A stretch of 64,000 bases of DNA from a virus (lineage: Duplodnaviria > Heunggongvirae > Uroviricota > Caudoviricetes): IMG/VR virus record IMGVR_UViG_3300006226_001702, positions 75,064 to 139,063 of that record. One strand, 5' to 3'. The notes under the pieces were generated by a model, which ran no database searches, was not told where the DNA came from, and saw only the letters and a program-made list of their open reading frames with translations. Shown piece by piece: positions 33,373 to 62,654 of this stretch; within the stretch, counting starts at the first letter, position 1, and the number at the start of each line of letters is the position of its first letter. The translations under genes were made by a program, and so were the position numbers.

Positions 33373-33385
33373 ATTGTTATATTAA

Positions 33386-33417
33386 CACAAAAAGGGCTTC
33401 CTGTTACAGAAGCCCTT
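33386..33417 (-). terminator. Intrinsic terminator
   Basis: AAGGGCTTC/GAAGCCCTT 9-bp stem followed by a T-tract on the minus strand. Confidence 0.8.
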
Positions 33418-40923: not shown

Positions 40924-41507
40924 TGAATAGAAATATCATTATCGCTGATATAGACGACACACTGATAAAATCATCTCCAGACGATATTGGTATTTGGAAA
41001 ATGAAAGATGGAGAAGAAACTCGACTAACGACTGAGGAGTTTGCTGAAGACCCAGATAAGGGAAAGCCTGGAATAACTTATGATTATTGGGAGTTTGAAG
41101 ACCCAAAAAGAGTTAGAGACAGTATTATGAATGGCACACCTCTTATTAGAAACTTAGAGATTATTGATGATTATCTTGATAATGGATATGATTTCGTTTT
41201 CCTAACAGCCCGTGGTTGTGAAGATGTTATCAAAGATGTAATGGCTGACTTTATGAAATATCGTTCAAAAGATGGTGAGTTAAAAGAATTGGGTGATAAG
41301 TTCAAAAGAAGTCTTTCTTATGCTGTTAATGATGAAAAATATTGTGAGATATTTGATGGCTTAAAAGATTTTGAAAGAAAAGCCAGCGTTATTAAACATA
41401 TTGCTAGAATGTATGATGACGTTATTTTCATTGATGATGATGATAGAAACTTAGAAGCTGTTAAAAATCTAGACTTACAAAACGTTTCAGTAGTTAAAGC
41501 GACTTAA
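40923..41507 (+). CDS. HAD-superfamily phosphatase
   Basis: Motif I DIDDT, motif II LTARG, motif IV FIDDD..N. Confidence 0.8.
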   Translation: MNRNIIIADIDDTLIKSSPDDIGIWKMKDGEETRLTTEEFAEDPDKGKPGITYDYWEFEDPKRVRDSIMNGTPLIRNLEIIDDYLDNGYDFVFLTARGCEDVIKDVMADFMKYRSKDGELKELGDKFKRSLSYAVNDEKYCEIFDGLKDFERKASVIKHIARMYDDVIFIDDDDRNLEAVKNLDLQNVSVVKAT

Positions 41508-42184
41508 ATCCTTTTTCCCATTCTAACAAAAGCCTCTGTGTTACCAAATCTTTTTAAGTCTCTATTATAAAGAACATCAAAGTTATCTTCAAACCATTTT
41601 AATAGCTCCCTAGATTCTTCTTCTTTTTTCCTACAGTGAATTTCGATAGCAAGATACTTAATGTATTTTGGAAGCTTAGTCCAGTCAATAGTGTATTCAC
41701 CACCTTCTGTGTCCATCTTCAAAATAGTTGGTTTGTATTTTTTGAGCTCATCATAAAATGACAAAGTTGGAACAGTTATCTTATCTCTTCCTCTCACTGG
41801 AATAATTGAATGAGTTCCCATGCATGGTTTAGTACCAGCTTTTCTTCTAGTTATGTAAAAATCAATTGTGCCAACTTCTCCAGCCATTGCGACATTATTT
41901 AGAATTGCATTACCCAATTTCTGTTTAGACAACACTTGAAAGTTTTCAGGTTCTGGCTCGTAAGAGATAACTTGTTTTGCTCCATATTTTAGAGCATTAT
42001 ATGCAAAGACGCCAATATTAGCACCAACGTCCATAACGACTTGGTCTTCACAAACTTTGAAAATTTCTTTATATTCATACATCTCTTTTAAGACGTCTAA
42101 ATCTCCAGTGTCAGGTCTATAAAATAATCCAGTTTTAGCATCTTCTAAAATAACGAGATTATTATTTCCAAATGTAAATGACAT
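41504..42184 (-). CDS. FkbM-family SAM-dependent methyltransferase
   Basis: MDVGANIGVF, ISYEPEPENF, ILKMDTEGGEY. Confidence 0.85.
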   Translation of the reverse strand: MSFTFGNNNLVILEDAKTGLFYRPDTGDLDVLKEMYEYKEIFKVCEDQVVMDVGANIGVFAYNALKYGAKQVISYEPEPENFQVLSKQKLGNAILNNVAMAGEVGTIDFYITRRKAGTKPCMGTHSIIPVRGRDKITVPTLSFYDELKKYKPTILKMDTEGGEYTIDWTKLPKYIKYLAIEIHCRKKEEESRELLKWFEDNFDVLYNRDLKRFGNTEAFVRMGKRI

Positions 42185-43083
42185 TAAAGTCCTCCAAATT
42201 TAAATCCATTCAATTGTTTGTATTCATCAGGATATTCTTTTATGTACCATTCTGGATATTTGACAGCATTTTTTGCACTAATTTTTGCTCCCATGACTCC
42301 ATTCAAATCCCAATGAATAATGTTTGGATATTTTTTAATTAGATATCTATAAACATCTTTATGCTTTTTGGACTGTTCTGCCTTTTTAGTTTGCTCTACA
42401 TTTAAGTCCCATGCTTGTGATTTAATTTTCTTGTCATAAACTGCTTCTAAAAAGTTTACTGTCTTTCCAGAAAAACCACTCTTAATAAATCTACAAACGA
42501 GTTCAACATCTTCTCCAACACCTAATGGACAATCTTTATCAAAGTTTATGTTGTGCTGTTTCATTAGTTCAATGTTTATTCCATAACAACCAGCAAATAA
42601 AGTATGTGAACTTTTAGATAATGGAGTTGTTCCTTTATAAGATTTGTTTGGACCAAATAATTTTAATCCAATTTGACTAGAAGGTATTTTAACAAACCAA
42701 TCTTTTTCAACATCAATATATTGTTCAATAGTGGCAAAGAAAGAAGCAATATCGACTGGGATGTATTTTGAATCTAAATCCTTAGTTTGGAACTTGATAT
42801 AATCATCATCAATGAACCAAGCAAATTTAGTTCCCAATTCCTGCTGATGCTTAATCATATCATATCTTTTTTCAGCAATATTTCTCTTTGGACCTTGTAC
42901 AATTATGTTACCAGTTTTTTCGTATTCTTCTTTATCATCAGTTACATCAATATAAATGTAAGCACTTAATTTTGATTTCTTTAAATGCTCAAAAGTATGT
43001 CCAACTGGCCTCTGATGACTGGGCACACAAATTGGATATTTTGGTGTGCCTTTTATAATGTAATCTAAATGAGTTTTCATCAT
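42184..43083 (-). CDS. GT-A glycosyltransferase, TET-associated (TAGT/GREB1-like) type
   Basis: YPICVPSHQR, NIAEKRYDM, AWFIDDD (DxD), GEDVE. Confidence 0.7.
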   Translation of the reverse strand: MMKTHLDYIIKGTPKYPICVPSHQRPVGHTFEHLKKSKLSAYIYIDVTDDKEEYEKTGNIIVQGPKRNIAEKRYDMIKHQQELGTKFAWFIDDDYIKFQTKDLDSKYIPVDIASFFATIEQYIDVEKDWFVKIPSSQIGLKLFGPNKSYKGTTPLSKSSHTLFAGCYGINIELMKQHNINFDKDCPLGVGEDVELVCRFIKSGFSGKTVNFLEAVYDKKIKSQAWDLNVEQTKKAEQSKKHKDVYRYLIKKYPNIIHWDLNGVMGAKISAKNAVKYPEWYIKEYPDEYKQLNGFKFGGL

Positions 43084-43085
43084 AT

Positions 43086-44390
43086 TTAATTTATGAAACT
43101 AGAATGCTGCACTTTGTTAGTTTCAAGCTCCATCAATATTTTGTTAGTTTCTGCTATCTTACAATTTATTGGGCAATATCTAGTATTTAATTCCTCCCCT
43201 TGTTTATAACGATAATCACTATTCCAAATATCAATTAAACGATTATCTGCTGTTATTTTTCCATAATAGCCACTCTTTGATCCATTATTGTAATCATTTA
43301 ATTTGAAACAACAAGTTAGGACTACACCTTCTGAAGTGATAGTTGGATATAATGCATGTCCATAACATTTCTTAAAAGGTATTCCAGTTTTTTCATATTT
43401 AATCAATTCTGCAAACTTATATGAGATAGTATAAACTTTGAAGGTGTCAGTTGAATAAGCAGACACATTAGATAATAGACTAAATATCTCCTTATCCCAA
43501 AATATGAAGGCAAGATTTAATCTATCTTCTGGGAATAAAACTATTGGTTTAATTTGTATATAATCGACACCAATTTTTCTAAAAGTATTTATTGCAGGAA
43601 GTACATCGAGATAATTATATGGAGTTAAAAGATAAGACACCCCAATAGTTATATCTGAATTATTTTCTCTTTTACATTGGACTGCTCTTTCAATAGCAGC
43701 AACAGTTTCATCAAAGTCAGCTACATTTCCATGCATCTCTTTATAAACTGTATCACTACCAGCATCAACTGAAAATCTAACCCATTGACAATAATCAATA
43801 ACAGGTTTTGGGTCCTTCAATAATTGACCATTAGTTATTAAGCCAACATCAAAATGTTGATTTAATGCTCTAATAATCTCTTGCCATTTTGGATGGCATA
43901 ATGGTTCACCACCTCCAGATAAGTTAACACCCTTAACCCCAAGTGTCTTCATATCTTCAACTAAGTTTGGCAATAATTTCATGTCAAAATTATGTTTCTG
44001 TTGTGGTGATAATTCTTTAACTGAAAAGGTACAACCTGGGCAAGCATGATTACAGAAAGTAGAAGGATGCATTTCAACAGTAACTGGTCCAACTTCTTTT
44101 CGAGTTTCTGGACAGAGATAATCTCTTAATTTGTCAAAATGAGATAATATCTTATTTGAAGTAAAGATAGAAGATTTTTGATTTGCAAATCTATTGTAGA
44201 ATTCCTCTAAGTTTTTCTGTTCTTCATCTAACATAATAGTTTTGACTTTAATAACAGTTTGTGCAGGTAACATTTCGGTGTTGTGAATAAACATATTATA
44301 GTCACTCAATGTGAGTCCTATCTGATTTGCAAAATCGTCTTTAGACAATTTTAATTGATTTCTTAATTTTTCTAAAACTTCTGTTCTCAT
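43086..44390 (-). CDS. XRE-type HTH fused to a radical SAM enzyme with SPASM/twitch-like tail
   Basis: N-terminal LEKLRNQLKLSKDDFANQIGL HTH; CNHACPGC (CxxxCxxC); SGGGEP; LITNG; C-terminal KCY...TCC...CPINC. Confidence 0.85.
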   Translation of the reverse strand: MRTEVLEKLRNQLKLSKDDFANQIGLTLSDYNMFIHNTEMLPAQTVIKVKTIMLDEEQKNLEEFYNRFANQKSSIFTSNKILSHFDKLRDYLCPETRKEVGPVTVEMHPSTFCNHACPGCTFSVKELSPQQKHNFDMKLLPNLVEDMKTLGVKGVNLSGGGEPLCHPKWQEIIRALNQHFDVGLITNGQLLKDPKPVIDYCQWVRFSVDAGSDTVYKEMHGNVADFDETVAAIERAVQCKRENNSDITIGVSYLLTPYNYLDVLPAINTFRKIGVDYIQIKPIVLFPEDRLNLAFIFWDKEIFSLLSNVSAYSTDTFKVYTISYKFAELIKYEKTGIPFKKCYGHALYPTITSEGVVLTCCFKLNDYNNGSKSGYYGKITADNRLIDIWNSDYRYKQGEELNTRYCPINCKIAETNKILMELETNKVQHSSFIN

Positions 44391-45361
44391 AATTGACCAA
44401 ATTTCTCCTTGAAACTTTTTGGTGTTGCATTCTTGATTAGATTAACCCATTCATAACCGTCGGATTTTGATTTCATTGAATCTCTAGCATAAAAAGTTTC
44501 ATTCTCTTCTAATATGTCCTGTAAAAAGTTATCCAATGAATCTGTTCTCCATCTATATTGAATTGGTCTCAATGATGATAAGCCTCGTCTAATAACGATA
44601 TCCGCCATATTGACTTTTCTCATTGCCATTACATTTTCACTTCCCCATTTCTTGTAAAGATTAAAACCTAACATACAAGTTTTATCTAAACCAGTAGAAA
44701 AGAATGCTCCCTTTTTAACTCGAGCATCTTGTGAAGTAGCTTTTTGAGCAGCATATTCAATATAAGTCATGGGTCTAATTCCCTGCTCTAATAATTGTAA
44801 GAAGTAATCATAATCTTCCCACATCATAATATCAGTAGTGTGATAAATAAGTTTACCACATTTTTCTCTCATTTTTTTCAAGTCCCAATAATGAATTGAT
44901 ATTGGACTCATGTGACAATATTTTGCTGGACGATGAATTCTATTCTTAATAAAATTGCTTCCTGCCATACCTCCATAAATGTGTTCGATTTCTGGAAGCT
45001 CTGGCCATCTAACATAAGGTACAGTTAGATTACGAATAAAATCTTCTTTACTGTAAGGGCCAAACTTACAAAGTCGTGATATGTTTTCATCAAACATCCA
45101 AACTTTATTATAGCCGTGAGCCTCTGCCCAATCCATAACATAATTCTTTAATGATGACATATTAGACTGTGTATCTTTATATGGCATTCCGTTATGTTCA
45201 ACAGCAAAATTTTTCGGTTTCCAATCTGGAAATTCGTTTTTATCTACAAATGCTACGACATCTTGTTTGTCATTAGAATGAAAAACATTCTTATATTTAA
45301 TGTCATCATATTTACAAAACGGTCCCCTTCCAGCCAAAATTGTTACTAAAGTTTTACTCAT
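44387..45361 (-). CDS. Second GT-A glycosyltransferase, TAGT-like
   Basis: NYVMDWAEAHGYNKVWMFDENI and WEDYDYFLQLL. Confidence 0.65.
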   Translation of the reverse strand: MSKTLVTILAGRGPFCKYDDIKYKNVFHSNDKQDVVAFVDKNEFPDWKPKNFAVEHNGMPYKDTQSNMSSLKNYVMDWAEAHGYNKVWMFDENISRLCKFGPYSKEDFIRNLTVPYVRWPELPEIEHIYGGMAGSNFIKNRIHRPAKYCHMSPISIHYWDLKKMREKCGKLIYHTTDIMMWEDYDYFLQLLEQGIRPMTYIEYAAQKATSQDARVKKGAFFSTGLDKTCMLGFNLYKKWGSENVMAMRKVNMADIVIRRGLSSLRPIQYRWRTDSLDNFLQDILEENETFYARDSMKSKSDGYEWVNLIKNATPKSFKEKFGQL

Positions 45362-45756
45362 GTCCTTTCCTTGATATTTTTAAGTACTCCATATCCTGAA
45401 GTTACTAGTATTGGTATGTTGTTTTTAATATGTATTAGAATGCTTTCAAATTCATCTACAATTGGTGGATAAGCATTTTTATTTCCAAGGCTCACCGCAA
45501 TTCTTGCACTCTCTAAAATCTTTTGCATATCCACACAAGCATTTAAAGTTTTTTCTACTGCTTCTGTTAGTTGTGTTACTCTTCTATTAGCTAATTCTCT
45601 ATTTACTCCAATTCCAAACATTGCGTTATAGATACTTTTTTCTTCATCATCTTCACCAACTAAATCATCTAAATCTATTGGTTGATAGTCCATAGCATCT
45701 TCTACATCTGAGAGAAGTTGGTCGATTTCTTTTTGACTCAAAGTTCCATCACTCAT
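45358..45756 (-). CDS. Protein with N-terminal FliM/FliY-like CheY-binding peptide
   Basis: MSDGTLSQKEIDQLL; class II motif 5 nt upstream. Confidence 0.7.
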   Translation of the reverse strand: MSDGTLSQKEIDQLLSDVEDAMDYQPIDLDDLVGEDDEEKSIYNAMFGIGVNRELANRRVTQLTEAVEKTLNACVDMQKILESARIAVSLGNKNAYPPIVDEFESILIHIKNNIPILVTSGYGVLKNIKERT

Positions 45757-45761
45757 ATTCT

Positions 45762-45770
45762 TATATTAAC
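45762..45770 (-). promoter_or_regulatory. Class II motif GTTAATATA
   Basis: GTTAATATA-AGAAT-ATG(45756). Confidence 0.65.
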
Positions 45771-46083
45771 TTTTACAAAACTGGCAATTACAATTAGTCT
45801 TACCAGAGAAAATGCAAACATCGTCATTTTCAGTTTTATCTTCCTCTGGAAAATTAAAGTCAGCAAAATCATCGAATTCTATTCCTGGAAACTCTAATTT
45901 TTTCGGAGGAAGATTTAACTTCACATTAACTTGTTTTACTACTTTCGGTTGTGGGGATTCAATAACTGTTGGTTTATATGGCCTGTTATATGTATGTCTT
46001 TTATATAAAATTGGAATAATAATCGTCAAGAGCCAGACGCCAGTCATTGATATGATAATTGAAAGTAGAATTTCTTCAATCAT
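45766..46083 (-). CDS. Small single-pass membrane protein
   Basis: N-terminal TM helix; C-terminal CxxC. Confidence 0.65.
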   Translation of the reverse strand: MIEEILLSIIISMTGVWLLTIIIPILYKRHTYNRPYKPTVIESPQPKVVKQVNVKLNLPPKKLEFPGIEFDDFADFNFPEEDKTENDDVCIFSGKTNCNCQFCKS

Positions 46084-46241
46084 TTTCTTGTATAAGTTTC
46101 CTCTTCTCCATATATCATTTTATTATCTTCATACAATTTAATTAAAATGTTGTATAATTCTTCTTGTTCTTTTTTATCTAATTCTACCTTCCCAACTGGA
46201 GTCTTAAATTCGTGAATCCAATATTCTATTCTGTCAGTCAT
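46080..46241 (-). CDS. 53-aa hypothetical protein (not in track)
   Basis: MTDRIEYWIHEFKTPVG...; SD AAGGAG; ATGA overlap with the next gene. Confidence 0.6.
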   Translation of the reverse strand: MTDRIEYWIHEFKTPVGKVELDKKEQEELYNILIKLYEDNKMIYGEEETYTRK

Positions 46242-46252
46242 AATTATGCTCC

Positions 46253-46441
46253 TTAATCAAATAATTCTGATCTTCCAAGTAGTTTTTCTACTGTCTTTAG
46301 TGCTTTAGTGAGTCTTAAATCAAATATGTTTAATCTCCTATTTACTACACTTACATCATTTTCTACTCTTGCTATTGTTGTTTCTAACTCCTTTAAGTAC
46401 ACAAACCAATCATTGTTTGTTTTTACTTGTTCTATTGTCAT
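46253..46441 (-). CDS. Small coiled-coil hypothetical protein
   Basis: 62-aa ORF; SD AAGGA. Confidence 0.6.
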   Translation of the reverse strand: MTIEQVKTNNDWFVYLKELETTIARVENDVSVVNRRLNIFDLRLTKALKTVEKLLGRSELFD

Positions 46442-48904: not shown

Positions 48905-48931
48905 ATTTTATCTCCTTGAATGTTATATTAA

Positions 48932-49786
48932 CTATTGTATAAATCCAGAATTTGGATTTTCATACATCTTTTTGACTTCTGGTTGATTATGTAGATATTC
49001 AAAATACTCTTTAATGATTTTATCAAGTAATTCAAAGTCTCTTTCATAAATGTGAAGTGAGCCTGCATTCCAATAAATGTTTCCACGTTCTGGATCCATG
49101 CTACTAAACATTCTAATATCTTTTAGAAAATATTCATAAACAAATCCATGCCATGGTAAGTCACCACAATGAAGTCCTCTAATAACATCATTACTTCTCA
49201 TTGTAACAATATAATCAAATCTATTTTTTCTAATAAAATGTTGTGTTGTTATAGTACAAGTAAAATCAGATTTAGCATTTATTCCATCATTCCATTCCCA
49301 TTGCATTTGTGGACGACCATAATAGATTATTGACTGTCTTCCATCTGGTTTTTCAATAAGTTGTTCTAAAGCATATTTATATTGAGATTTTTCAACTTTA
49401 TTTCTTGGTATATAAATATGTCTTTTATTATCAGTAAGTCCATCATAATAGATCCTTCCATTTTCTGGACTAAAAACACACCAACCATAATTTGAATTAA
49501 CTCGGCCATCATCAGTACAAATGCGGGACCAAATTTTATTATCTTCAATTCCCTTATGTCCCTTAATACATCTGTCTTGACTCATGTACCATTTGTGTTC
49601 ATTTTCTATATATTTATGTTGAGCTTTTCTGGATTCACCAAGATGAAGTTTAGTATCAGTTGCATCAAAAACAAGATTTGCATTAATGATTTCAGCTGTT
49701 CCTGCAACTAAATCATTTTTCTTAATTTTTTCCTGTAATGGAATTAAAACATTTTCAATGAGATAAATAGCGTTTTTTGTGTACAT
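48932..49786 (-). CDS. dCMP hydroxymethylase-like enzyme (T4 gp42 branch of the thymidylate synthase superfamily)
   Basis: NSNYGW..F, RQSIIYYGRPQMQ, DFTCT, MRSNDV..G....DLPW and IYWNAGSLHIY mirror T4 gp42 (DFMCT, MRSNDVVFGFRNDYAW, IIWNVGSLHVY, as recalled). Confidence 0.8.
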   Translation of the reverse strand: MYTKNAIYLIENVLIPLQEKIKKNDLVAGTAEIINANLVFDATDTKLHLGESRKAQHKYIENEHKWYMSQDRCIKGHKGIEDNKIWSRICTDDGRVNSNYGWCVFSPENGRIYYDGLTDNKRHIYIPRNKVEKSQYKYALEQLIEKPDGRQSIIYYGRPQMQWEWNDGINAKSDFTCTITTQHFIRKNRFDYIVTMRSNDVIRGLHCGDLPWHGFVYEYFLKDIRMFSSMDPERGNIYWNAGSLHIYERDFELLDKIIKEYFEYLHNQPEVKKMYENPNSGFIQ

Positions 49787-52132: not shown

Positions 52133-54013
52133 TTATATTAACCTCAAAAAATTTGTTTGTGCTTCATAATCTCCGCCCAAAGTTAGTTTCCATTCTTCAG
52201 GTGTGAGTGTGTTTTTTCTAATAAGTCCGTCAAGAACTTTCCCCTTTTGTTCTAAGTTCAACAACATTAAATTATCAATAGAATTATGATAACATAAGTT
52301 ATAATATCTAGTTTCCTCATCTTGTCCAATGCGATGAATTCTTCCTCTGAATTGCTCATAAGTTATGTATGCCCAAGTTCTCTCAAAGAAAACTGCTGCT
52401 TTACATTCAGTTAACGTAAAAGAAGAATTAGCAATATTTATTGATGCAAGAAGAATCTTATTTTTGCTTTTCTTAAAATCAGCAATTAATGGAAAACGAT
52501 CTTCCTTTGCGACATCAGCTGATATTACATGAAAATCAAATTTAAGATGCTGTTTCAAACATTCAAGCGTAATTGGATGATAATATGATATGATAATTTT
52601 GTTATCTTTTTCTACACACTCCTCTTCAATAATTGCATCCAATAATTTTAACTTTTCAAAATCTCTTTCAAAATTAAAGTTCTTAACATTTTGTTGTAAT
52701 ATTGGGTCGAACTTATCAAAGTTTGGCGTCTTTAATAAACACAATGGATTATCAATAGATAATTGTAAATATTGGAATGTATTAGTTAAATTAGCAACCA
52801 ATCCGGCATTATTTGAAAAGTTTCTTTTCTTAACATCATTAATAACTTCATATGTAAATGCCTCATAAATTTCTCTATGTGGTTTAGACATGTTCGTATA
52901 AATAGTTGGCACATCATAAGCTGTTGGAAGATTTAATAAACTTTTTTCTCTTTTAACAGCATAATTTTTATATAAGTTGTCTTGCAATTCAGTCCACTTT
53001 TGATAATTCCAAGTGTCTTTATTTATTCCATAACGGGACCATTTATTTCCCAATGTGCAATATTCAGTTAACCAATTTGTGTAATCTAATCCATTTACTA
53101 GAGCATTATTTAGCACTTTTAATAACAGATACATCTTCTCTTCTTTGTCAGAAGGAGTTGCACTAAATTGATAACGATATTCAAAATATTGCAAGTTCAT
53201 GTCAATAAACTTTGACCTCAAAGAACTTGGACTTCCTAAAAAGTGGCACTCATCTAAAAATAATAATCCTTTATATTTTCCAAACCATTCTTTTAATGGA
53301 AGAGGTGATTTTCTATATTTAACTTTTTTAGTTCTTTTATTTATAGCCTTATCATAAGCATCCCCAATAGACCTAAATGAATCATATCCACAAATTATTA
53401 TATCATAATCTTTATCAAAAACTAATCTATCTTTTAATGATGATATTGATTTAATAACGAGCGTTTTTTCTTCATCATAATCTTTAATAAACTTTTTTAA
53501 TTCATGTGGCAAGTTTAAAACACCAATGGGAGAAGTTAAAATAATTGCTTTGTAACATTCACCAGCTAATCTCAAATGTGATAACAGAGCAGCAAGCACG
53601 TAACTTTTTCCTAATCCAGTTGCATGCGCAAATAAAAATCTGTTTTGATTTAAGCCTCGAACTATATCAATTTCTTGAAAACTTCTAATATCTTTTTCAA
53701 CTTGATATGGTTCACATAATAAAAGTTCTTGATTAAACTTGCGATATTCTGAACGCTTATTTATAACTTTTAATTCATCTATATTGTCAAAATATTTAAT
53801 TATTTCTCTTTTGTCATATTCATTTAAGTCAATGTGGTAAGGCTCTAATTCTTTGAAAACTTCGTTAAACTTCCCCACACCAATTTGCCAAATCTTTTTA
53901 GTTGGTTCAAATCTAGCGCCTAATAATTTTAACGTTTCAATTTGCTCACTAAATTGATTTCCTGAGGGTTTAATGTTTAATAGTTTTTCATCATCATAAC
54001 TTAACTGTATCAT
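52133..54013 (-). CDS. SNF2-like SF2 helicase/ATPase
   Basis: ATGLGKS, LDECH, FSATP, QFRGRIHRIGQ. Confidence 0.85.
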   Translation of the reverse strand: MIQLSYDDEKLLNIKPSGNQFSEQIETLKLLGARFEPTKKIWQIGVGKFNEVFKELEPYHIDLNEYDKREIIKYFDNIDELKVINKRSEYRKFNQELLLCEPYQVEKDIRSFQEIDIVRGLNQNRFLFAHATGLGKSYVLAALLSHLRLAGECYKAIILTSPIGVLNLPHELKKFIKDYDEEKTLVIKSISSLKDRLVFDKDYDIIICGYDSFRSIGDAYDKAINKRTKKVKYRKSPLPLKEWFGKYKGLLFLDECHFLGSPSSLRSKFIDMNLQYFEYRYQFSATPSDKEEKMYLLLKVLNNALVNGLDYTNWLTEYCTLGNKWSRYGINKDTWNYQKWTELQDNLYKNYAVKREKSLLNLPTAYDVPTIYTNMSKPHREIYEAFTYEVINDVKKRNFSNNAGLVANLTNTFQYLQLSIDNPLCLLKTPNFDKFDPILQQNVKNFNFERDFEKLKLLDAIIEEECVEKDNKIIISYYHPITLECLKQHLKFDFHVISADVAKEDRFPLIADFKKSKNKILLASINIANSSFTLTECKAAVFFERTWAYITYEQFRGRIHRIGQDEETRYYNLCYHNSIDNLMLLNLEQKGKVLDGLIRKNTLTPEEWKLTLGGDYEAQTNFLRLI

Positions 54014-61854: not shown

Positions 61855-61944
61855 AAAATATTCCTTTTTTGTATTTACTATTAACGACAATCGCTTAATC
61901 ATAGCGATGAACAAAGGTGGGTGTTTTTCAACGTTTTTCTTGTT

Positions 61945-61999
61945 TAATTAGTATGTAATTTTGTTATAAATTATTATACTATCTTAACATTATATTAAC
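61945..61999 (-). promoter_or_regulatory. Tandem class II (61991-61999) and class I (61945-61952) motifs upstream of the lipoprotein operon
   Basis: GTTAATATA and ACTAATTA in the same orientation. Confidence 0.55.
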
Positions 62000-62003
62000 A
62001 CTG

Positions 62004-62654
62004 TTAACTTTTAATGTTGGGTCGGAAAGAAGTTTTCTTATCAAAGCCATGATTTTCAATCTTTTGGACGTCTGAGTTGACAATTTCGACAGTTTTGTCA
62101 TTATACATTCCACTAAAATAGTTGGCCAAAATATTGTAGAATTCCCGGCTATCAATCAAACTTGGGATAAAAGTCTCTCCCCAGATACAATCACCAAAAT
62201 TGTGGTTGTATGCTTTTTCTGAGACTATTATGTTTTCTAGCTTATCGAAACTTAACATCCTCCTTTTACTTAAATCTATTCCAGTCCTAAAATGCGTAAA
62301 AGTTACTGTGTTTTTAGTTATCTTTTTATTCTCTTTGAAGATGCGATCAATTTTTTGCCATTTTCTTGAGACATCAATTATATATTGGACATTACCAATT
62401 TCAAAGAGAATTTTGCCAAACTTTTCTCTGTTTTTATCTCTCCAATCTCCTGTCCAATTTATATTCCAATCCCATCTTCTTAGAGCGTATTCGTAAGTGT
62501 TTTCTGCTAAACAATAATCAAGTAAAGTTTCCTCAGTTATGATTCGGCTTTTTCTTCTGTCGTAAGTTGCAGCTTTATCTGGTTGGCCGAACTCAAACTG
62601 ATGCCAGTCGTAGTAATCTTTCTTATTATCTAAGATTTGCATGTCACACCCCAT
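62004..62654 (-). CDS. Hypothetical protein
   Basis: 216-aa ORF. Confidence 0.7.
   Translation of the reverse strand: MGCDMQILDNKKDYYDWHQFEFGQPDKAATYDRRKSRIITEETLLDYCLAENTYEYALRRWDWNINWTGDWRDKNREKFGKILFEIGNVQYIIDVSRKWQKIDRIFKENKKITKNTVTFTHFRTGIDLSKRRMLSFDKLENIIVSEKAYNHNFGDCIWGETFIPSLIDSREFYNILANYFSGMYNDKTVEIVNSDVQKIENHGFDKKTSFRPNIKS

Follow-up and report, generated by a model that had tools for sequence, protein, structure and literature searches.

Why does a large phage encode a small protein that opens with the docking peptide of a bacterial flagellar switch and continues with a body of another kind? The question is raised by a 64,000-nucleotide stretch of viral DNA, referred to here as the window, which comprises bases 75064 to 139063 of a 198.6-kb IMG/VR virus record. 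The record, only about 60% complete, has a G+C content of 35% and carries 22 tRNA genes together with a tmRNA gene, and on these grounds it is regarded as a large fragment of a jumbo phage genome. A preliminary description of the window had drawn attention to a 132-amino-acid open reading frame (ORF) beginning with a FliM/FliY-type peptide, and had proposed that its product acts as a sponge or decoy for phosphorylated CheY (CheY-P) in a host that was guessed to be a spirochaete.

The target gene and its N-terminal peptide

The target gene (P0001) is confirmed as one minus-strand ORF at positions 45358 to 45756, with an ATG start and a product of 132 amino acids. The protein starts with MSDGTLSQKEIDQLLSDVE, given as MSDGTLSQKEIDQLLSDVEDAMDY in the ORF listing, and the range to which attention had been drawn, 45712 to 45756, corresponds to residues 1 to 15, with the core LSQKEIDQLL at residues 6 to 15 (45712 to 45741). 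Since the ATG is the first start codon past the upstream in-frame stop, the peptide is truly N-terminal. Calculated from the amino acid composition of the phage itself, a motif of the form LSQxEIDxLL would be expected 2e-5 times in the whole phage proteome, a figure that drops to 9e-7 when only the first ten residues of each ORF are considered, and the match to FliY, described below, runs past the motif to a length of 20 residues; a chance origin of the motif is excluded.

Relationship of the peptide to spirochaete FliY

When 185,579 species genomes were scanned for VLSQDEIDQLLTAI, a string first met in a FliM gene of a viral contig, more than 120 loci came up, and among the titles listed nearly all belonged to Spirochaetota, many of them to termite-gut Treponema MAGs. 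The spirochaete FliM encoded at these loci is about 341 to 346 amino acids long and starts with M[TN]EVLSQDEIDQLLTAI, while the gene adjoining fliM encodes a product of 350 to 410 amino acids that starts with MSDG[SA]LSQ[DAE]EIDALL. Because this neighbor combines a clear FliMN_C match with a weak CheX-like match below the Pfam curated cutoff, it was identified as FliY. The N termini of FliY from termite-gut Treponema (MSDGALSQDEIDALLAGVD and MSDGALSQDEIDALLAGVDSS) can be set beside those of other members of the phage family (MSDGSLSQDEIDALLAGVES, MSDGAMSQDEIDALLAGVDA, and MSDGALSADEIDALLSGVNT), and in BLASTP two phage family members were 74 to 82% identical to FliY over their first 22 to 23 residues. 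When the phage family (alignment A1) was compared with 14 spirochaete FliY sequences (alignment A2) using hhalign, the two aligned over residues 1 to 20 only, with a probability of 97% and an E value of 6.7e-11. On this basis, residues 1 to 20 of the target (MSDGTLSQKEIDQLLSDVED; 45697 to 45756, minus strand) are a copy of the spirochaete FliY N terminus, and among switch peptides the target is closest to the FliY of termite-gut Treponema. An apparent continuation of the similarity past residue 20 in BLASTP (GEDDEEKS in the phage and G(S)EDERK in FliY) was unsupported by the profile comparison and was rejected.

The phage peptide resembles the EIDAL peptide of the spirochaete switch proteins (FliY and FliM) in being of the 20-residue type, in starting at residue 1, and in being followed by a flexible linker; unlike FliY, it is encoded by a phage and joined to an unrelated helical hairpin. 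Comparison of the proteins thus indicates that the target carries the tip of host FliY, lineage-specific flanks included, on an unrelated body and that in every other respect it is a fragment of neither FliY nor FliM. Its assignment to the EIDAL docking-peptide class draws on several features: (i) the motif LSQxEIDxLL lies within the first ~15 residues, and the target keeps all of the core positions; (ii) homology to bona fide switch peptides extends beyond the bare motif, as seen in the alignment with the 14 FliY sequences; and (iii) the peptide is conserved among homologues and is followed by a linker that appears flexible from its pLDDT of below 50. By sequence, position, and conservation, the peptide of the target is a member of this class, and as such it may bind CheY-P or FlhG.

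A phage-only family with a conserved peptide

The target is the founder of a family confined to phages. Only three relatives emerged when 1.84 billion representative proteins were searched exhaustively with HMMER, and a profile search added two further ones, bringing the family to six members of 123 to 137 amino acids; those that can be placed lie on large phage contigs of up to 328 kb. A word-index protein search and a related-locus search of viral contigs gave no match for the target, and blastn of the 6-kb target region against the phage collection found nothing. Among the four members aligned first, residues 1 to 16 are 50 to 81% identical, compared with 25 to 30% over the remainder, and this better conservation of the peptide than of the body suggests selection on the peptide, which is the best-conserved part of the family. 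A failure of homologues to conserve the peptide had been named beforehand as evidence that would speak against the docking idea; all five relatives keep either the peptide or its coding DNA.

One relative (P0006, on a 5.7-kb Logan contig; L260:2119-2180, plus strand) has an 8-nt insertion within the peptide-coding DNA. The flanks of the insertion still read MSDGALSQDE and EIDALLAGVD, and the altered frame gives MSDGALSQDE, a stop, and a restart leading to MNEIDALLAGVD. The insertion reflects an assembly error or else a natural knock-out of the docking peptide.

Linker, body, and domain content

AlphaFold2, run on the four-member family alignment, predicted for the target a helix at residues 8 to 21, an acidic stretch of low confidence at residues 19 to 41, a short helix at residues 38 to 47, and two long helices at residues 53 to 92 and 97 to 131, a layout that matches the acidic linker and helical or coiled-coil body given in the preliminary description. 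The acidic linker (residues 19 to 41; 45634 to 45702, minus strand) is predicted to be disordered, with pLDDT below 50 at residues 19 to 35 and 37 to 41, and contains residues D31 and L32, invariant in all six members, as well as G34 and D37, which are constant among the four members aligned first. The linker of every one of the six family members also has a second conserved motif, DDL[IV]G[ED]xD, which could be a second binding element.

The body (45364 to 45600, minus strand) is modeled as a two-helix hairpin (residues 53 to 92 and 97 to 131; pLDDT 71 to 85) with a conserved GY near the C terminus, and G121 and Y122 are the only hairpin residues invariant across the six sequences. Judged by its shape alone, the hairpin may dimerize. 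In a Foldseek comparison with the PDB, its best match had an E value of 0.58 and consisted of generic helices, only generic helical hairpins in the ESM Atlas resembled the body, and the target profile found nothing below an E value of 0.05 among PDB sequences.

No PHROG family matches the target protein, and in Pfam nothing was found at an E value of ≤0.1 except a sub-threshold match to DUF2779; the target is therefore without a FliM, CheC/CheX, or FliMN_C domain, which bears out the absence of FliM middle and SpoA domains noted before. The CheC-like or FliM middle domain (PF02154/PF13690 type) is missing, homology to FliY stopping at residue 20, and so is the C-terminal SpoA/FliMN_C domain (PF01052) for C-ring assembly, which is present in Treponema FliY. 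Lacking both the CheC-like and the FliN/SpoA domains, the target cannot assemble into the C ring. It stands outside the FliM, FliY, CheZ, and CheC families, the defining domains of which are absent from it.

The predicted architecture nevertheless has a parallel in CheZ, the CheY-P phosphatase of gammaproteobacteria, which combines a CheY-binding peptide, a flexible linker, and a long dimerizing helical hairpin. The predicted structure of the target shows the same design of a short docking helix, a flexible tether, and a two-helix hairpin; unlike CheZ, however, the target has its peptide at the N terminus, so that the order is reversed, and it has no sequence similarity to CheZ and no Asp/Gln catalytic pair. 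Neither Pfam nor the six-sequence alignment revealed CheZ-like phosphatase features, be it a catalytic Asp/Gln on the hairpin or similarity to the CheZ family. As for the CheC/CheX/FliY phosphatase fold with its ExxN motif, the target has no CheX/CheC match in Pfam, and its predicted fold is an all-helical hairpin. A phosphatase of the CheZ or CheC type was rejected, since the hairpin is without a conserved acidic/amide catalytic pair. Because the hairpin has no conserved catalytic residues, a binder or sponge is proposed rather than a phosphatase, and the target probably acts like a tethered binder.

Host and signaling genes of the phage

The phage encodes a chemoreceptor of 693 amino acids with dCache, HAMP, and MCP signaling domains, the cytoplasmic part of which is 52 to 62% identical to many MCPs of five termite-gut Treponema genomes. 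Relatives of the phage chemoreceptor were sought in genome contigs, and none were found there. Taken together, the FliY-type peptide and the Treponema-like chemoreceptor suggest that the host is very probably Treponema, which fits the earlier guess of a spirochaete host, the peptide being the Spirochaetota-specific N terminus of FliY.

Also encoded by the phage is a hybrid histidine kinase of 975 amino acids (G000:C1:170641-173568, minus strand, outside the window; L006:642-3569), for which domain matches indicate the order PDC-type sensor, HisKA, HATPase, REC, Hpt, and REC. The stretch holding the kinase gene also contains many of the tRNA genes of the phage and its tmRNA gene. CheW is absent from the phage record, incomplete as it is, and the phage is thus without a full chemotaxis set.

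In four termite-gut Treponema genomes (G001 and G003-G005; L254-L257), no cheY was found downstream of cheA-cheW-cheX, an operon in which cheW is long (424 to 445 amino acids). In the same loci, genes encoding CheY-like proteins of 122 to 128 amino acids lie upstream of separate cheX paralogues. The CheY-like protein encoded beside a cheX paralogue was used for complex prediction (alignment A3), and when combined with residues 1 to 40 of the target (A1) it scored 0.29, the mark being 0.32, in a run without controls.

Occurrence of the peptide in other phages

The preliminary description had suggested looking for the N-terminal peptide in phage proteomes, and several more unrelated phage proteins were found in this way. 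Degenerate DNA scans of IMG/VR for LSQ[DE]EIDxLL gave 57 in-frame matches, about twenty of them located no more than 12 residues from the beginning of a small ORF. At least five further small-protein families carry the peptide at or near the N terminus, and their bodies are unrelated in BLASTP once the peptide is removed.

A coiled-coil family of 126 to 150 amino acids (L115:9269-9649, plus strand; L119:2207-2620, minus strand; L024:6361-6813, minus strand) bears the spirochaete FliM tip, YTEVLSQ[DE]EIDQLLTAI, 25 to 30 residues from the start; its members are encoded on contigs of 87 to 329 kb and end in ELFD. The neighborhoods on L115 and L119 contain chaperonin and structural genes. L024 and L011, the latter a contig of the target family, derive from one JGI sample.

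Another family, of 121 to 128 amino acids (L096:1404-1769, plus strand; L105:3150-3536, minus strand; L103; L112; L114; L118), was detected by tblastn in Campylobacter phages, each of the 29 matching records containing it, such as those of CP220, CP21, CPt10, NCTC12673, CP81, CP8, PC14, and others. The proteins, always annotated as "hypothetical protein," start with MA.ILSQEEIDALL, which we take to be the FliM tip type of their epsilonproteobacterial host. The representative in CP220, located by tblastn, is gp071 (YP_009169205.1; NC_027997.1, 65899 to 66264; L258:5001-5366). Similar to the target, gp071 and its homologues are small phage proteins with an N-terminal peptide and a body without a Pfam match; they differ from it in that the bodies are unrelated by BLASTP. 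The gp071 gene is two genes away from a QueD-like DNA-modification gene, and CPt10 contains a second, truncated copy of the gene (L122).

Further small proteins with an N-terminal EIDAL peptide (152-amino-acid Cys-rich and MADILSQ[DE]EIDRLL types included) are encoded at L009:4460-4918 (plus strand), L014, L021:1936-2280 (plus strand), L110:754-1185 (minus strand), and L036:2174-2512 (plus strand). The Cys-rich protein of 152 amino acids starts with MRDILSQDEIDALLNG, and single phage proteins start with MADILSQDEIDRLL (290-kb contig) and MADILSQEEIDRLL (114-kb contig). A truncated FliM-like ORF of 225 amino acids with the EIDAL peptide lies on a jumbo phage contig of 305,833 bp (L086:200-877, plus strand); it matches Pfam FliM over profile positions 1 to 99 of 192 (E value, 8.5e-15) and has no SpoA domain.

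Similar strings also turn up in unrelated settings, LTQDEIDALL in phage tyrosine integrases and GLSQDEIDYLL at an internal position in a family of phage proteins of about 140 amino acids, and the string alone is therefore nondiagnostic; what is diagnostic is an N-terminal position together with a following linker and flanks of the host lineage. Across phages, the capture of the peptide looks convergent.

Proposed function of the target protein

It is established that CheY binds FliM at its N-terminal EIDAL motif (PMC6946799). For the target, we favor a role in which a protein made by the phage mimics the host flagellar switch as a CheY-P decoy or sponge, and hold the arguments for and against this role to be about evenly balanced. 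The mechanism could operate as follows: (i) residues 1 to 20 would mimic the docking peptide of Treponema FliY, with the acidic linker tethering the peptide to the helical hairpin; (ii) the free phage peptide would compete with the FliM and FliY of the motor for phosphorylated CheY; (iii) with less CheY-P reaching the switch, the frequency of reversal or flexing would change; and (iv) the chemotactic control of the infected Treponema would be blunted or re-set, presumably to the benefit of the phage, which may at the same time bring its own chemoreceptor into play. Dimerization of the hairpin, as its shape suggests, would make the sponge bivalent.

Those parts of the original decoy proposal that can be checked in silico were all supported, but the proposal had overlooked a second partner of the EIDAL motif: it is established that FlhG, the flagellar-number ATPase, docks there as well. 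The phage peptide might accordingly target this MinD-like ATPase, which docks on the same motif, and pull it off the C ring, in which case one would expect disturbed flagellar number or placement, and disturbed division-site control where FlhG serves it, rather than an effect on chemotaxis. The EIDAL motif of FliM has been reported to be required for the binding of FlhG in Shewanella and to be sufficient for it, and in Bacillus subtilis FlhG binds FliY, the type to which the phage peptide belongs. A possible host partner is encoded in Treponema genome G001, in which flhF is followed by a gene for a MinD-family ATPase, with fliA two genes further on. The Campylobacter phage family would fit as well, given that in C. 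jejuni division, too, is under the control of FlhG, whose placement at the poles is C-ring dependent. We nevertheless consider FlhG, the main rival, an unlikely target and favor CheY-P, for two reasons: FlhG is reported to bind only one switch tip per species, whereas related spirochaete phages copy the tips of both FliM and FliY, to both of which CheY-P is expected to bind, and the presence of a chemoreceptor in this phage speaks for the chemotaxis pathway.

A partner inside the phage itself, with the peptide docking on a phage-encoded receiver domain and the small protein serving as the output or adaptor of a phage-owned phosphorelay, seems quite improbable to us. Although the sensor-HisKA-HATPase-REC-Hpt-REC protein of 975 amino acids provides two receiver domains, and CheY-type receiver domains are the known fold binding such a peptide, the lineage-specific flanks match host FliY, as mimicry of a host interface predicts, and the stretch of Campylobacter phage that was viewed contains no sign of a receiver domain.

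The decoy reading for CheY-P can be extended beyond the target. Capture of a host-switch peptide, from FliM or FliY, may be a recurrent strategy that evolved independently, in which a combination of peptide, linker, and arbitrary body titrates CheY-P or FlhG; we offer this tentatively, the doubts slightly outweighing the support. Its scope would include spirochaete jumbo phages, the Campylobacter phages of Eucampyvirinae, and several other uncultured lineages, and through it phages would gain control of the infected cell's motility, chemotaxis, or flagellar assembly. In Treponema phages, the peptide protein and the phage-borne chemoreceptors together would constitute a viral chemotaxis-rewiring kit. 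Since such copies are carried by unrelated phages, phages probably interfere with the way in which their hosts control swimming.

Phages use flagella as receptors. No account of phage proteins with the EIDAL motif came to light in full-text literature searches, in agreement with the earlier remark that no described phage system of this kind was known, and the target joins an already known docking peptide to a viral scaffold that is new. If the proposal is true, it would have several implications: (i) phages would possess a direct grip on bacterial behavior, that is, on where the infected cell swims and whether flagella get built; (ii) short-linear-motif mimicry of the chemotaxis pathway would join the mechanisms of phage takeover; (iii) conserved "hypothetical proteins" encoded by the Campylobacter phages now being developed for biocontrol would gain a function; and (iv) the presence of chemoreceptors on jumbo phages of gut spirochaetes would be explained. 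The idea is already testable at the bench, since the Campylobacter phages, like their host, are in culture and amenable to genetics.

Gene neighborhood and promoter-like element

In all six phages of the family, the gene directly downstream of the family member encodes a TET-associated glycosyltransferase (TAGT). In the window, this gene (44387 to 45361, minus strand) has an ATG that overlaps the target stop codon by 4 nt, an overlap with the first gene of a DNA-hypermodification cluster that had been missed in the preliminary description. The slot occupied by the family lies in a cluster of the thymidylate-synthase-like/kinase/epimerase/radical-SAM DNA-hypermodification type, and the downstream run in the window continues on the minus strand with genes for an HTH-radical SAM/SPASM enzyme (43086 to 44390), a second TAGT (42184 to 43083), and an FkbM-type methyltransferase (41504 to 42184). 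The downstream run (41504 to 44390) is probably cotranscribed with the target. The target could be construed as an accessory subunit of DNA hypermodification, for example, a partner of TAGT whose FliY-like N terminus is an inherited or coincidental helix without a role in motility, given the slot upstream of TAGT that is invariant in the six phages, the 4-nt start/stop overlap, and the QueD-like gene two genes from the Campylobacter phage analogue, but this seems quite improbable, as the peptide is the most strongly conserved part and agrees with the host switch peptide along 20 residues, other peptide-bearing phage families are found in different contexts (chaperonin and structural genes; L115 and L119), and the conserved position beside TAGT, real as it is, says little when the six phages are syntenic across the whole region.

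Upstream of the target, the syntenic context consists of minus-strand ORFs for a membrane protein of 105 amino acids (45766 to 46083), a protein of 53 amino acids (46080 to 46241), and a coiled-coil protein of 62 amino acids ending in SELFD (46253 to 46441), and small ORFs occupy matching upstream positions in the relatives.

The promoter-like motif that had been noted ahead of the target gene is real as a sequence. The element, GTTAATATAA (45761 to 45770, minus strand), ends 4 nt before the target ATG and occurs 17 times in the 198.6-kb record, compared with 2.8 copies expected; 12 of the 17 copies lie no more than 60 nt upstream of the start of a gene on the same strand. Further copies lie on the minus strand of the window (33377 to 33386, 48923 to 48932, and 52133 to 52142), and 13 more occur in the record (G000). 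On these statistical grounds, the element is a putative promoter. In six cases, it ends only 4 to 5 nt ahead of the ATG, and there a leaderless or near-leaderless transcript would be expected if it is a −10-like element.

The ending (S/G)ELFD is shared by four small proteins of the phage, encoded at 46253 to 46441 in the window and at 61912 to 62208, 67740 to 67958, and 142343 to 142537 of the record (G000:C1), all on the minus strand. ELFD or ELLD also ends many small proteins of related phages, including those on L115 and L024, as a recurrent C-terminal tag.
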